Positions 1 through 35,799 of a stretch of 64,000 nt of DNA are shown here, one piece after another; position 1 is the first letter of the stretch; every line of letters starts with the position of its first letter. The translations under genes and the position numbers were made by a program. Below the pieces are notes generated by a model that was not told the DNA's origin, did no database searches, and saw only the letters and a list, made by a program, of their open reading frames with translations. The stretch comes from a virus (Duplodnaviria > Caudoviricetes): positions 2,595 to 66,594 of IMG/VR virus record IMGVR_UViG_3300021400_000341; one strand, 5' to 3'.

Positions 1-359
1 TGCCATTTCTTACCATCTATATGATTTACTTCTAAATCTGATATAGTATAACCTTGTTTTGTAAGTCTTTTAGGAACTTTAATAAATGCTATAGCAACAA
101 GTCTATGTATGGACATATTTCTTTTAGATATAATCATTCGACAATAACCATTAGTACCTACTCTTATTTTAAATATACGACCATTTCTCATTACTCTACC
201 TTTTGATGATACGAAATAATCACTTTCCATATTATCAATTTTAACGCGTTTCCATTTTTCTTTTTTATGTAGATAATCATTTTCTAAAATATCTACATCA
301 AGGAAAATTCCATTTGGTAAATTATGTGGTATAAAATCACTAAGTTGATTCTTTTTCAT
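1..359 (-). CDS. NUMOD4-HNH homing endonuclease (partial, runs off the left edge)
   Basis: Manual translation from ATG at 359: MKKNQLSDF...KWKRVKIDNMESDYFVSSKGRV (NUMOD4-like)...IHRLVAIAFI...LEVNHIDGKKW (HNH). SD AAGAAAGGAA upstream. Not in the ORF track. Confidence 0.85.
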   Translation of the reverse strand, partial: MKKNQLSDFIPHNLPNGIFLDVDILENDYLHKKEKWKRVKIDNMESDYFVSSKGRVMRNGRIFKIRVGTNGYCRMIISKRNMSIHRLVAIAFIKVPKRLTKQGYTISDLEVNHIDGKKW

Positions 360-454
360 ATTTTTAAATTCCTTTCTTATAGTATTTTTAAAAATATGTA
401 TGTATACTTATTTTATTTTAAAGTAGGTAAAACAGTGTAATAATATGATATTTT

Positions 455-1252
455 TTAATTTATTTTTACGGCTTTTGGATATGAACCCGTTACAACTGAA
501 GTACCAAATGGTGATATATCTTCTTTTGTAATACCATCCATAAATGCTGATGATAATACTTTATATTCACCTGTAACTATATCTTTGTATGCTCCCTTCA
601 TTATATTCATATTTTGATAATTACCAAGACCACCTCTTGCTCCTGATATATATAAATCTAATCCGGGATCTTTAGCAAGGTCTTTTTTAACATCATTCAT
701 TAATTCACCAATGATTTTTTCAGAAGTCGGTATATCATTATTTTTCAATTCTTTTTTATATTTAGTAAATAACTCTTTCTTCTTTTTCAAAACATCTGCA
801 GGTAGTGTAATAGAGTTTCTTGTAAATGACGTAGTTATTACTGAATTTAATTGAAATCCTAATGTATCTCTATAATCAATCCATTTAGTATAATCATCAG
901 TAGTTATTTGGTCATTTAATAATGCATTAGTTAATTTTTTCTCTATACCACCATAGGCTCCTTTAGTTAATGGGATATTTACATATCCTAATACTTTTTG
1001 AAACCCACATCTTTCAATAAGATATTTATTAAATATAAATCTTCCTACAGTAGTTTCTGTATTTGTTTTTACAAAATAATCTGCCGGTGTTAAAGTAAAA
1101 GTATCAGTAGGATTAAACTTACTTTTCTTTAATGGTTTATTTGGAAGTTCATCATTTCTTGTATCTCCAATAAGTCCTACTAAAAAAGAAAAAGTCATAT
1201 CTTCAGGTTTAATAGATAATAAATATTCTTTATCAGAATTTGAAAGTTTCAT
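455..1252 (-). CDS. RNA polymerase beta' middle fragment (probably virion RNAP), ending at the bridge helix
   Basis: TTVGRFIFN and LYISGARG match beta' motifs (TTVGRVIFN, SGARG). The ORF stops at GSYPKAVKIN, where beta' normally continues into the T-A-x-S-G-Y half of the bridge helix. Confidence 0.8.
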   Translation of the reverse strand: MKLSNSDKEYLLSIKPEDMTFSFLVGLIGDTRNDELPNKPLKKSKFNPTDTFTLTPADYFVKTNTETTVGRFIFNKYLIERCGFQKVLGYVNIPLTKGAYGGIEKKLTNALLNDQITTDDYTKWIDYRDTLGFQLNSVITTSFTRNSITLPADVLKKKKELFTKYKKELKNNDIPTSEKIIGELMNDVKKDLAKDPGLDLYISGARGGLGNYQNMNIMKGAYKDIVTGEYKVLSSAFMDGITKEDISPFGTSVVTGSYPKAVKIN

Positions 1253-1259
1253 AATTATA

Positions 1260-1994
1260 TTAAGCCTCCTCTTCTTTTAAAGTTTTCTTTAACATAAGAC
1301 CTTTTGTAACAAGGTCTGAATTTAATCCCATTCCTAATAAAAATGTATCTACTGTATTTAATGTAGTTTTATTAACTACATCACTATCTAATTCTTCTAA
1401 TGAAACATATCCTTTATTAGAAATAGCTGTTATCATTTCTTCTTTCATAACCATATCATCTGATCTTGGTCCATTTAATTCTTTTAACGTATCTTTCATA
1501 TTATATGATATTAGCATGAAATTTTCAAGGTCAGACTGTCTACCATTTTTATCAGAAGCTGTAACCTGACCTGTTAAAGCAGATCTAATATCACTTGCTG
1601 TTGATAGTCCATTTTTCTTTGCAAGAATTTGCTGAGTTCTCTTTATATGACAATATCCAACAGGAACAGGTTCTTTAGTGGATATTACATTTCCTTTATC
1701 CATAGTATAATGAGGACAATATACTTTTTCAAATAAAGGAATCTTTAATATACCGGCAGCTTTCTCTATACTTTCAAATGTAAGTTCTATCTCGTAATCT
1801 ACTACAGTCAATGTTAAGTAATCATTCTCATTAGCAAATAAGTCTTTAAAAAAAGAATCAAATTGCTTATCTGACATAGCAGAAAACTCTTCACGGTAAT
1901 GCTTTGTATTTTTACCGGTAGGGTCTAATGCTGAGAATACTGAATAGATTAAATCTTCCATTCGTTTTCTTTTTAATGAGGTTATCATTAACAT
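1260..1994 (-). CDS. RNA polymerase beta C-terminal fragment (probably virion RNAP)
   Basis: GYCHIKRTQQ...GRQSDLENFMLISYN...LKELNGPRSDD parallels the beta C-terminus (GYMYMLKL..H...GQRFGEMEVWALEAYG...LQEILTVKSDD). Late-type promoter at 2020-2031. Confidence 0.8.
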   Translation of the reverse strand: MLMITSLKRKRMEDLIYSVFSALDPTGKNTKHYREEFSAMSDKQFDSFFKDLFANENDYLTLTVVDYEIELTFESIEKAAGILKIPLFEKVYCPHYTMDKGNVISTKEPVPVGYCHIKRTQQILAKKNGLSTASDIRSALTGQVTASDKNGRQSDLENFMLISYNMKDTLKELNGPRSDDMVMKEEMITAISNKGYVSLEELDSDVVNKTTLNTVDTFLLGMGLNSDLVTKGLMLKKTLKEEEA

Positions 1995-2164
1995 GACCTC
2001 CTTTTCTTTTATTAATGATTATCTAAATGTTTCCTGCCACTTTTTATATTACCGTATGTCGATAGAAGATATAGAGGCTATGGAGGAAGAGGGTTAATCC
2101 CTCTTCTTTTTTTATAGTTTTACATTTATTTAAATATAAAACTAAAATAAAGGAGGAGATTGTA

Positions 2165-3301
2165 TTGAGTTTAGTCAAGGCTCTTTTTTTGGAAAAAGGA
2201 CATGATCTTGGAACGGGATTAATATCTATTAGAAAATTTGAATCTGATATGATTGAGCTTCCGGAAAATGCCATATATCTATTAGATAGTGCTTCCTCAA
2301 GTGCTTGTAATAAATCGGCTTTTATATACAATAACAAAGTATATGTTATAATGAAAACATATTATGATATAGATGCGGATACTATTATATTAATTGCTAA
2401 ATTAGATACTGAAAATAATAATGATTATAAAGATCCTGAGGAAGTAATAGTTATAGAACCTGAGATTACAGTAAATGGTGTAGTATATGATAATATAAGT
2501 GATGCTATAGCAAATGCTGAAGAAGGTCAAACTATTAAAGGAAATGGATGTACTATAAATGATGCAGTAAATTTAACTAAAGCTGTTAATATTAAAAATC
2601 TTATATTCAAAGGAAATGTTACAGCTAATATTACATCTGATAAATCTATGGAAATATCAAATAGTGAATTTATTGGTTCTTCATTAAACATAGTATCTAA
2701 TTCAGAGAATAATACTATTTCCATTAATAATAATAAATTTAGTACTGATACTTTTATAAGAAATCCTCTTATATTAAATACAAAAGGAAAAGTAGTTGTA
2801 AAGGGAAATGTATTTAACGGTGGAGATAAAGTATATTATAATCCTGTAGAGACAGGTGTTAATACAGAAATATCAGGAGCCGATATTTCCGACAATAAAT
2901 TCTATGGCTCATTCAAAAACAATGCTATAAATATATTTGCAGTCAAAGATAATATAAGTATTAATATCAATAATAATTACTTTGAGAATCCTTCAAACTG
3001 TGTAAGATTAAGTAATGTAACTAATCATAATGCAATATTCTATTTTAAGAAAAATCAATACTGTAATGAAGTTCTTGAAGGTGATGCTGCTAAATATATG
3101 GGATTTTTATTATGTCAATCATTTACTGAGACTCCTCAGGATTTCAGTAAATATAATTTAGTATTCAGTGCTCACATGTATAAAAATACTGTAATCACAA
3201 GGCAGATAGATGAATCTGTTCCTCAAAGAACTTATTATACATATGATAATAACACAGGTGGATCTACTGAAACTAATCCTAAAGTCACATTTATCAAATA
3301 A
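2165..3301 (+). CDS. Right-handed beta-helix protein, putative virion/receptor-binding protein
   Basis: YDNISDAIANAEEGQTI followed by Asn-rich ISNNKF/VKGNVF/ISDNKF rungs typical of pectin-lyase-like helices. Confidence 0.5.
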   Translation: MSLVKALFLEKGHDLGTGLISIRKFESDMIELPENAIYLLDSASSSACNKSAFIYNNKVYVIMKTYYDIDADTIILIAKLDTENNNDYKDPEEVIVIEPEITVNGVVYDNISDAIANAEEGQTIKGNGCTINDAVNLTKAVNIKNLIFKGNVTANITSDKSMEISNSEFIGSSLNIVSNSENNTISINNNKFSTDTFIRNPLILNTKGKVVVKGNVFNGGDKVYYNPVETGVNTEISGADISDNKFYGSFKNNAINIFAVKDNISININNNYFENPSNCVRLSNVTNHNAIFYFKKNQYCNEVLEGDAAKYMGFLLCQSFTETPQDFSKYNLVFSAHMYKNTVITRQIDESVPQRTYYTYDNNTGGSTETNPKVTFIK

Positions 3302-3321
3302 TAGAAAAGGAGTGATGATAT

Positions 3322-4095
3322 ATGGCTTCAAAGACAGCTAAATTTAAAAAGAAAATCAATGGTGTTATTTATGATCTTAATATTATAAGTGATGCTAATA
3401 GTATTAAGGTAGATGATAAAGGTGGTACTGTAGCAAGTATGCTTGAAGGTTTTAATACAAAACTTCAGGATTTAGATACTACTATACAGGAAGCTGACCC
3501 TGCTGGTTTAAGAACAGATATAACCACTATTCAGGGAGAAATTGCTACCTATAATACTAAAATATCAACATTAGAAACTACTGTAGCAAATCAGGCAACA
3601 GAAATTGATAGTAAAGCTAATGCTGATGATGTATATGACAAAATTGAAGTAGATACTGCTCTTGCTGCCAAGACTGATAAAGAAGTCGCTGGTACCAATG
3701 GTAAAGCACTTATCTTTAATGAAGGTGACGGTGGCGGAGCTAAATTTGAAAATAGTGATAATGTAACAAAGTCATTTGCCGGTGTAAATGATGGCGTTGC
3801 TGGTATATATGCTCAACTCTATGCAGTTGAAAAACAATCTAGTGGTAAATCTAGAGGTTCTAAATTTGATGTTACTCTCGGTGGTATATATTATACTACA
3901 GGTCAAGACAGTGAAGGATCACCTACTGATAGAGATGTATCTGCAAATGAACTTGCAGTAAAAGGTGATTTAGCTGATTTAGCTGATACTGTATACACAA
4001 AAGCTGAAGTAGATGCTGCTATTGCTGCAGCTGTGCCTACTACACAGGCTATTGAAGCTATTATAGAGAATTATCTCAACACACACAATAATTAA
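3322..4095 (+). CDS. Putative tail fibre/structural protein
   Basis: Coiled-coil N-half; VYDKIEVD/VYTKAEVD fibre-type repeats; SD AAGGAG. Confidence 0.45.
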   Translation: MASKTAKFKKKINGVIYDLNIISDANSIKVDDKGGTVASMLEGFNTKLQDLDTTIQEADPAGLRTDITTIQGEIATYNTKISTLETTVANQATEIDSKANADDVYDKIEVDTALAAKTDKEVAGTNGKALIFNEGDGGGAKFENSDNVTKSFAGVNDGVAGIYAQLYAVEKQSSGKSRGSKFDVTLGGIYYTTGQDSEGSPTDRDVSANELAVKGDLADLADTVYTKAEVDAAIAAAVPTTQAIEAIIENYLNTHNN

Positions 4096-34299: not shown

Positions 34300-35799
34300 A
34301 TGGGTTATCTTGAAGATATTACAAAATTCATTAAAGATGGTAGTAAATATGCTAAAGATGCTAAATCTGCTTTTGATAAGAATAGACCTTCAGGAAGTAT
34401 TGCAAAAAAAGCATTAAATGGTACTTTACAATTCCCTTGCTTAGTGTCTAATTCTATACCTATTGATATGGCAAGTACTTTAGCAAAAACCTTTGAAAGA
34501 GTATATGCATCTTTTATTCAGACATATCTATCATTAAATAGTACAGTAGATATTTCTGTAGACAAAAACCCTTCAGATTTTTTAAAGAAAATTCATAAGA
34601 ATATTAAATTGGAATCTACTGAGTTAGATATGTATGTTGAGAATTGTTTTGAAGCTGATGAGGATTTTGATAATTTATTAAGCAGAATATACAATGGTAC
34701 TACTAAAGCATATATTAATGAAAACGAAAATAAAATGATAGTTTTCAATTTATCTGAAAAATTATCTCCTGAAGTATTTCATGAAAATAAAGATTTATTA
34801 GAAGAATCCTTAAAAGAAATAGATTTTAAACCTTTTCCCAATATTGGAAATAGTCCTTTTTATGAAGGTCATTGGAATGGTGATACATATATCCCAAGCA
34901 CCTTACGTGAAGTACGTGACAATATAGTTGACAATGCGAGTAGCAGTTTAATAGGAAATGTAATAGGTGCTGTTAGAGATGCAGGTAGAGCAGCATGGGA
35001 TCAGAATAGAGGCCCCAGTAATGTTGAAAAATGGAGAAATGATCAAGATTTTAAAAAAACTGAATTGGGTGCTAAACTTAAAGGTAATTATGATTTGAGA
35101 AATGAAGTTTTAACTGCTGATAAATTTGTAATTCCTCAGATATTAAATGACCAAGATGTTAAGAAAGCTAATGAAATGCAACCTTATTTAATGCAAGTTA
35201 GGTTAATGGCTGTTAATGATGAAAATGAATTTGTACAATTCATGGATTTCATTGTAGGTATAAAGGTTGTATTACATCCAATAAAGTCTGATGAAATGAT
35301 TACTAATTTACAAAGAGTAATGCAGAATAATAATAAGTTCTTTAATTTCATTAGATGGACTACCGGTGAAAAGGCTTTCTTTAAAGATTTCTTATTTGAT
35401 ATAAAGAATATGAAATTAGATGTAGCTAATAGATCCATGGGAGCTTCAAGTTGGTGGAATACATTAAAGAGATTAAAAGATAGATCAAATTATACTACTG
35501 CATTATTCAATAGAAATCAGATGATACCAAATGCTACTATGATAATTACTTCATTTGAAGTAGATGCTCTTAGAGAAGATTTTGGTATGGATTTGAGAAA
35601 TGTTGCATATGCTATTAAATTAATGCAATCATTATTCTTAATGAGCTTTGTTATAGTTAATAATGATACAAGAACAGTTGAAATATTATATGAGGGTGAG
35701 AGATCATATCAAACATATGCTCTTGAAACTCTTGAAAGAGAAGTTACTCTTAATTCTAATAAAGTTGGTAGAGAACTTACCAGAATGATTAGTAGATAA
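34300..35799 (+). CDS. Putative virion structural protein
   Basis: SD GAAAGGAG; late motif at 34251-34262. Confidence 0.55.
   Translation: MGYLEDITKFIKDGSKYAKDAKSAFDKNRPSGSIAKKALNGTLQFPCLVSNSIPIDMASTLAKTFERVYASFIQTYLSLNSTVDISVDKNPSDFLKKIHKNIKLESTELDMYVENCFEADEDFDNLLSRIYNGTTKAYINENENKMIVFNLSEKLSPEVFHENKDLLEESLKEIDFKPFPNIGNSPFYEGHWNGDTYIPSTLREVRDNIVDNASSSLIGNVIGAVRDAGRAAWDQNRGPSNVEKWRNDQDFKKTELGAKLKGNYDLRNEVLTADKFVIPQILNDQDVKKANEMQPYLMQVRLMAVNDENEFVQFMDFIVGIKVVLHPIKSDEMITNLQRVMQNNNKFFNFIRWTTGEKAFFKDFLFDIKNMKLDVANRSMGASSWWNTLKRLKDRSNYTTALFNRNQMIPNATMIITSFEVDALREDFGMDLRNVAYAIKLMQSLFLMSFVIVNNDTRTVEILYEGERSYQTYALETLEREVTLNSNKVGRELTRMISR

Follow-up and report, generated by a model that had tools for sequence, protein, structure and literature searches.

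The DNA analysed here, hereafter the window, is a stretch of 64,000 nucleotides (nt) corresponding to positions 2595-66594 of a 66.6-kb viral contig (G000:C1, IMG/VR record IMGVR_UViG_3300021400_000341); the 2,594 bases to the left of the window were also examined. At its left end lies a gene for the 'mid' piece of the virion RNA polymerase β′ subunit, a homologue of AR9 g264, together with a gene for a NUMOD4-HNH homing endonuclease of the I-HmuI-like kind. All relevant genes are on the minus strand. I argue that the insert carrying the endonuclease gene is, with high probability, a 1,288-nt mobile group I intron of the phage IA core type, which interrupts the β′ piece bearing the bridge helix. 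Coordinates are those of the window unless they are given as contig positions.

The interrupted polymerase gene and its insert

An open reading frame (ORF) of 265 amino acids (aa) at 455..1252 terminates ...GTSVVTGSYPKAVKIN-stop. Exon 1, assigned by PHROG 2962 and tblastn, occupies 468..1252 of it, from an ATG at 1252 to a U at 468 (codon position 2 of the Val of ..PKAV). The exon 1 ORF matches only part of PHROG 2962 ('RNA polymerase beta subunit'), from position 70 to 294 of a 433-position profile. It was found that an ORF at contig 1751..1350 covers the missing part of the profile, positions 304-430, and that the seven codons 5′ of the ATG of this downstream ORF, directly after a TAA, encode GTAESGY. 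A preliminary description of this locus had read the β′ ORF as ending in the middle of the bridge helix, and had proposed to look left of the window for a downstream β′ exon starting near GTxxSGY. An exon starting GTAESGY is present there, and with it the remaining β′ segment that should follow the HNH gene. The bridge helix itself was confirmed by alignment. Exon 2 (TAESGYMSKKLLAAMQ) aligns with TAESGYLTRRLVDVSQ of bacterial β′ (7l7b_D, residue 766 onward), exon 2 residues 2-40 aligning from residue 766 (TAESGYLTRRLV), and the whole exon 2 matches the AR9 non-virion polymerase chain 7s00_D with an E of 3.4e-9. The match of exon 2 to Pfam Rpb1 domain 5 reached 24.6 bits, under the cut-off of 28.5.

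The gene is uninterrupted in Bacillus phage AR9, where g264 reads SYSRAV|GTREGGY. In tblastn, the match of g264 to exon 1 residues 1-262 is followed without a gap (nucleotides 221558|221559) by its match to exon 2, which starts at the first exon 2 residue. Uncultured relatives with about 57% identity are also uninterrupted and read YPKAVGTAESGY. The spacing in the ..PKAV|GTAESGY.. segment is unchanged in 32 of 32 distinct uninterrupted relatives; all continue through the junction with unchanged length, which answers the earlier concern that uninterrupted homologues might end at this position too. Given the spacing in the homologues, the mature message must read gcc gua ggu aca, with the cut after gccgu or gccgua. 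Thus read, the gene most likely encodes one 402-aa bridge-helix subunit collinear with AR9 g264.

In unspliced RNA, the first 13 nt of the insert would be read as ..(V)KIN-stop, and an AT-rich leader follows before the HNH gene. The leader (360..467), which would form the 5′ part of the P1 loop and begins at a 5′ splice site set by a U.G pair with a distal guide sequence, contains the AT-rich spacer that had been put at about 95 nt and is exactly 95 nt long (360-454). A TACA-N6-TA motif, TACATATTTTTA, is present at 389..400 as had been reported, and a second copy lies at 428-439. The motif resembles the AR9 late promoter consensus AACA-N6-TA/G (PMC7598289). Its presence is weak evidence for a promoter because the window contains fewer matches to (W)ACA-N6-TA than expected (123 versus 194). 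The Shine-Dalgarno-like AAAGGA at 370..375, 10 nt 5′ of the HNH start codon (ATG at 359), had been called strong; the site stands, with its strength graded as moderate.

The first 119 codons of the HNH gene lie at 1..359, and the gene runs off the window start. Its complete ORF (contig 2953..2144) encodes 269 aa, in which the NUMOD4 noted earlier scores 26.5 bits (Pfam cut-off 23.4) and HNH_3 27.6 bits (cut-off 24.8). The protein also matches PHROG 59 'HNH endonuclease' with an E of 2.9e-42, its HNH motif EVNHIDG..NLEW..KEN..H aligns with that of AR9 g271, and its C-terminal half gives weak helix-turn-helix matches.

Ribozyme core, guide sequence and predicted splice sites

The putative intron spans contig 3061..1774, that is, from window position 467 leftwards past the window start, and interrupts the Val codon of ..YPKAV|GTAESGY.. 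between its second and third bases. From 5′ to 3′ it would consist of the 108-nt leader, the 269-aa HNH gene, a guide region UACCU-GCGGCUUU, the paired regions P3-P9, and a 12-nt tail. The HNH gene and exon 2 are separated by 370 nt without an ORF. When the 421 nt after the HNH gene were searched alone, RF00028 matched contig 2160..1786 on the minus strand (45.9 bits, E 1.1e-10, model positions 26-253), the 5′ end of the match being cut by the limit of that stretch. The preliminary description had mentioned an intron whose core lies beyond the window as one of two possibilities. The RF00028 core, a distal guide and the GTAESGY exon were all found left of the window.

The guide was found by scoring every G in the intron for combined P1 and P10 pairing, with no prior choice. 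The best partner lies 925 nt from the 5′ splice site and pairs over 8+5 base pairs (bp). It is GCGGCUUU at contig 2136-2129, preceded by UACCU at 2141-2137. P1 pairs aaagccgU with Gcggcuuu over 8 bp with a U.G at the splice site, and P10 pairs AGGUA of exon 2 with UACCU over 5 bp, directly adjoining P1. The guide is then followed by AAAA-P3, as in relatives whose guide lies 10 to 39 nt from the 5′ splice site. The guide begins 2 nt beyond the stop codon of the HNH gene, which places this gene within the P1 loop. The absence of a U-G P1 at the junction, as stated in the preliminary description, is thus true within the window, and the guide with its U.G pair exists beyond the left edge. To my knowledge, an endonuclease gene in the P1 loop is known for nuclear introns but not for any phage intron. 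For nuclear introns, P1 is among the described locations of endonuclease genes (PMC3679873). A local guide sequence was also sought within the 108-nt leader, and none was found apart from a partial look-alike. This is uaccuacuuuaaaa (416-429, minus strand), which resembles the guide region uaccugcggcuuuaaaa (contig 2141-2125) with the central gcggc swapped for ac. It may be a scar of the entry of an endonuclease cassette into the P1 loop, or a chance resemblance in AT-rich sequence.

Several relatives have an intron at this very position, in phase 2 of the Val or Ile codon that precedes GT, with related IA-type cores and with guides matched to their own exons. The L025 intron (315 nt) has no ORF; it matches the whole RF00028 model (positions 1-253) with 97.9 bits, has its guide at +39 nt, and ends in A. 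In L036, L037, L038, L053, L054 and L067-L069 an HNH gene lies in the P6 loop, the guide is at +11 to +13 nt, and the last base is G. L058 and L081 have the same layout with an HNH gene inside the intron, the guide at +10 to +11 nt, and a last base G. The L036 HNH protein is 46% identical to that of the present intron over its full length. One family of homing endonucleases thus appears to act on a single target site while being encoded in different loops, in P1 in this intron and in P6 in its relatives. The present intron differs from these same-codon introns in the distance of the guide from the 5′ splice site (925 nt versus 10-39 nt), in the lack of their P9.1-like hairpin, and in a P5 extension of about 120 nt. 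A scan of viral contigs for more introns of the L025 type gave four chance hits and no real one.

The core pairings were assessed on ten aligned introns. In P7, P7.1, P7.2, P8 and P9, 95% of the cells pair, compared with 22-52% in slid controls. Both-sided changes occur in 23 of the 38 core pairs, and none of 500 shuffles matched the observed values. P3, read by eye, is compensatory, with CCUCUC/GGGAGG here, CUCUCU/AGAGAG in L081, and CCGUGUG/CGCACGG in L025. P7.1 and P7.2 sit between P7 and the 3′ strand of P3, which is a hallmark of phage IA-type introns. The guanosine-binding pair in P7 (columns 9-175) is G-C in all ten introns, and A7-U176 and the bulged C8 are invariant. Exon 2 position +1 covaries with its P10 partner, being A-U in this intron and L081 and C-G in L025, L036 and L058.

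The same arrangement is found at 95% identity in L007 (IMGVR_UViG_3300021431_000301), and this pair was used to estimate nonsynonymous (pN) and synonymous (pS) divergence. The exons have a pS of 0.09-0.17 and a pN of about 0.01 (exon 1, pN/pS 0.008/0.090). The ribozyme core is 1.4% different, including a pairing-preserving double change in P9, and is about sevenfold more conserved than the synonymous exon sites; over 360..467 there is one mismatch in 104 nt. These values point to an intron that is maintained by purifying selection, and a decaying relic would look different. The HNH gene has a pN of 0.044 and a pS of 0.075, which suggests relaxed or diversifying selection.

From sequence, I infer splicing itself, the exact junction and the endonuclease activity. 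Guanosine-initiated self-splicing would join gcc gu|a ggu aca and restore ..PKAVGTAESGYMSKKLL.. in a 402-aa protein. In relatives infecting the same cell, the HNH enzyme would nick or cut alleles in which this highly conserved site carries no intron, and repair would copy the intron in (homing). Ribosomes completing the HNH ORF would cover the guide sequence, so that HNH translation and splicing would probably be mutually exclusive on the same RNA molecule. With the endonuclease gene in P1 and its end 2 nt from the guide, the intron would offer a neat natural arrangement for coupling nuclease translation to splicing.

Apparent terminal adenosine and alternative explanations

Several points weigh against a spliced group I intron. 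The RF00028 score of 45.9 is below the gathering score of 50, and a scan of the 4.7-kb locus at an Rfam E of 1 or less gave no group I match; a scan of the 64-kb window at an E of 0.01 or less gave none either. The negatives of these wide scans were a sensitivity effect. P1 must close across a 925-nt loop. Among 5.8 billion predicted proteins, the spliced-form protein of this lineage is absent and only the 265-aa unspliced form was found. Lastly, the final intron base is A (..uuaauauaaauA|agguaca), and the 3′ junction is identical in this contig, L007/L057, L022 and L023. In group I introns the P7 pocket must take up a G at the intron end for the second step of splicing; where that base is A and the pocket is still G-C, exon ligation is expected to be severely slowed.

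The A is terminal because the junction is fixed by the homologues and by P10; the terminal G expected of a group I intron is absent. The G taken by Rfam as terminal, at contig 1786, was rejected as the splice site. It closes the P9 stem, the pairing of which is kept in L007 via two swapped U.G/U-A pairs, and with a splice at this G, all three frames would contain stop codons ahead of GTAESGY. Rfam likewise misplaces the terminal G of L025, 47 nt before the exon. L025 ends in A independently (..gaauacaaauA|cgguacg), and it is the only same-codon intron to share the terminal A, while the ORF-bearing introns at this site all end ..aaauG|. The tail of the present intron aligns base for base, except for the terminal G, with those of L081 (auauaaauG|a gg) and the nrdD intron of Fusobacterium phage phiKSUM (auauaaauG|g gg). 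Since the P7 pocket is G-C in the A-ending introns as well, there is no compensating change among the ten introns. The nearest parallel is an engineered Tetrahymena ribozyme, reportedly made in the work of Michel in 1989 and of Been and Perrotta in 1991, that combines an A-U nucleoside pocket with a terminal A. It resembles the present intron in its last base, but it needs the pocket changed from G-C to A-U, whereas the pocket is G-C in all ten aligned introns. A literature search for natural group I introns ending in a base other than G returned nothing relevant. It is conceivable, and I put it forward only tentatively, that this intron and, independently, the ORF-less L025 intron are natural ribozymes that ligate exons accurately with a terminal A and an ordinary G-C pocket, perhaps by means of a strong P10 beside P1. 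If this is true, a set of phage introns would not be strictly bound by the terminal-G rule. If splicing is confirmed, a terminal A with an unchanged pocket would bear on how strict the second-step requirement for G is.

The terminal A can also be taken at face value. On that account the insert stays in the RNA, the polypeptides ..PKAVKIN and MSKKLL.. assemble non-covalently, and the ribozyme is a relic disabled by a terminal G-to-A change that should cripple exon ligation. Such an intron-less split was the reading preferred in the preliminary description, and polymerase genes of jumbo phages are indeed split at other places (PMC7598289). An in-frame AUG lies at the eighth codon of exon 2 both here and in the A-ending L025; however, the same Met is present in the uninterrupted L024 and the G-ending L036, and the AUG is preceded, at 3 nt, by no more than an AGGA, which differs from the properly spaced ribosome sites of neighbouring genes. 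Neither fragment would contain GTAESGY, the segment with the T and the GY that are invariant in the bridge helix. These codons follow the TAA directly, without a start codon of their own, and yet they are kept in frame with only synonymous differences from the relatives of 57% identity. A relic would have decayed, whereas the core is under apparent purifying selection and the guide matches both exons; a ribozyme capable of the first step only would cut the mRNA, which would be harmful. The functional split is improbable, and the intron is favoured over it.

A still less probable alternative is canonical splicing with the next G as the terminal base (..aaauaagG|uaca). This would give gcc gu|u aca and hence ..PKAV-TAESGY.., a bridge helix one residue shorter. 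Both the U.G at the 5′ splice site and a terminal G would be kept, the frame would be maintained, and the G-C pocket in P7 is intact. An in-frame option of this kind nevertheless exists for every intron at the site, the Gly codon supplying the G, and is not evidence by itself. None of the 32 distinct uninterrupted homologues has a length change. An exon starting UACAG allows no P10, whereas the exon consistent with the homologues has 5 bp beside P1 and a position +1 that covaries across lineages. The tail alignment to the G-ending L081 and phiKSUM introns also places A at the terminal position. The two junctions predict different ligated exons, gccguagguaca for the terminal A and gccguuaca for the terminal G, and the predicted tryptic peptide spanning the junction spliced after the terminal A is AVGTAESGYMSK. 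A group II intron, an intein and ribosomal bypass were also considered and rejected: the insert lacks a GUGYG start, has no frame that stays open across it, and measures 1.3 kb.

Insertion hot spot, neighbouring genes and known systems

Roughly 10 of the 44 protein clusters of the clade stop a few residues after ..PKAV, at this site. Across the relatives there are at least four insertion points within ten bridge-helix codons, the others being A|RN in L089 and G|T and GG|Y in the Staphylococcus phages Machias and PB50. Thus counted, the bridge-helix codons are an insertion hot spot. L089 (IMGVR_UViG_3300043122_000207) has at 3216-3490 an ORF-less group I intron two codons upstream (..YFRA|RNTAMGGY), which ends in G. 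An HNH-like ORF further upstream in L089, near a DYDGD motif, suggests another intron in the neighbouring polymerase piece. In Machias and PB50, which are Staphylococcus jumbo phages, the introns of the orthologous gene fall in this ten-codon stretch, at G|T and inside GG|Y. The introns of these phages differ from the present one in being about 165-175 nt long, in carrying no endonuclease gene, and in ending in G. Machias (L006, MW349128.1, about 2265-2610) has two small group I introns that are 16 nt apart and enclose the micro-exon actcaagaaggtgggt (TQEGG and the first base of Y). PB50 (L020, about 1965-2150) has the second intron only and reads ALGTQEGG|YQAKKL. The GenBank coding sequence of Machias gp171 is joined from two pieces only, and the micro-exon may be missing from the deposited protein. 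In Bacillus phage vB_BpuM-BpSp (L018, KT895374.1) the conserved P7 5′ strand TTCAACGACTATCG occurs at 1480, 2502 and 2879, three copies in 1.4 kb, on the 3′ side of a gene that is annotated as an RNA polymerase beta C-terminus. This suggests that the stretch may hold several unannotated introns and split 'hypothetical' ORFs.

Upstream of exon 1 and outside the intron, a separate virion RNA polymerase piece of 244 aa is encoded at 1260..1994 on the minus strand. It matches PHROG 3233 'RNA polymerase beta subunit' with an E of 1.6e-39, and its stop codon precedes the exon 1 ATG by 7 nt. A 42-nt segment that includes this ATG and its ribosome site (1217-1258) recurs at 81% identity at contig 35059-35099 and 105-145, and could be a shared translation-initiation or leader element. 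Directly 3′ of exon 2, a gene for an NrdG-like anaerobic ribonucleotide reductase activase lies at contig 849-1328 on the minus strand (PHROG 626, E 1.5e-56), which suggests that the host is anaerobic. Related intron cores are found in nrdD of Fusobacterium phage phiKSUM. The phage described here is an uncultured, AT-rich, AR9-like jumbo phage.

Among known systems, AR9 g270/g271 has these features in common with the present locus: in an AR9-like jumbo phage, a multisubunit polymerase gene carries a group I intron with a NUMOD4-HNH gene, inserted at a catalytic motif. The intron cores are 68.6% identical over 133 nt with a common P3/P4/P7-P9 layout, and the HNH catalytic regions are 52% identical over 60 residues. 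However, the AR9 intron sits in the non-virion RNA polymerase β′ gene at the DYDGD motif, g264 being uninterrupted; its guide adjoins the 5′ splice site with the ORF further inside, and it ends in the canonical G. In Aeromonas phage Aeh1, the free-standing mobE is said to split nrdA, so that the two halves are translated separately and no ribozyme is involved. That system shares with the present one a mobile endonuclease gene of the HNH family between two halves of an essential gene. In the present locus, by contrast, the endonuclease gene is flanked by a complete ribozyme whose guide is matched to the exons, and at the exon boundary the downstream half offers no start of its own. Pseudomonas phage PhiPA3 gp210 is an intron HNH homing endonuclease in a virion RNA polymerase subunit gene and acts against phiKZ (PMC11620839, Birkholz et al. 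2024). An HNH gene in an intron of a virion polymerase gene is the common feature, and homing and interference between phages would be expected here as well. PhiPA3, compared by description, is a nucleus-forming phiKZ-like phage in which the subunit and the site differ, and the activity was demonstrated there, whereas it is predicted here.

Group I introns with NUMOD4-HNH genes are therefore already known from the polymerase genes of jumbo phages (AR9; Machias for group I only; PhiPA3 for the HNH). The present locus would be a further example of mobile introns that target the catalytic centre of RNA polymerases in jumbo phages, and reading it in this way corrects a likely mis-call of one gene as two ORFs and an HNH gene. 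Compared with the known systems, two of its details are unusual: the putative placement of the endonuclease gene within the P1 loop, the guide being distal, and an intron end that is apparently A.

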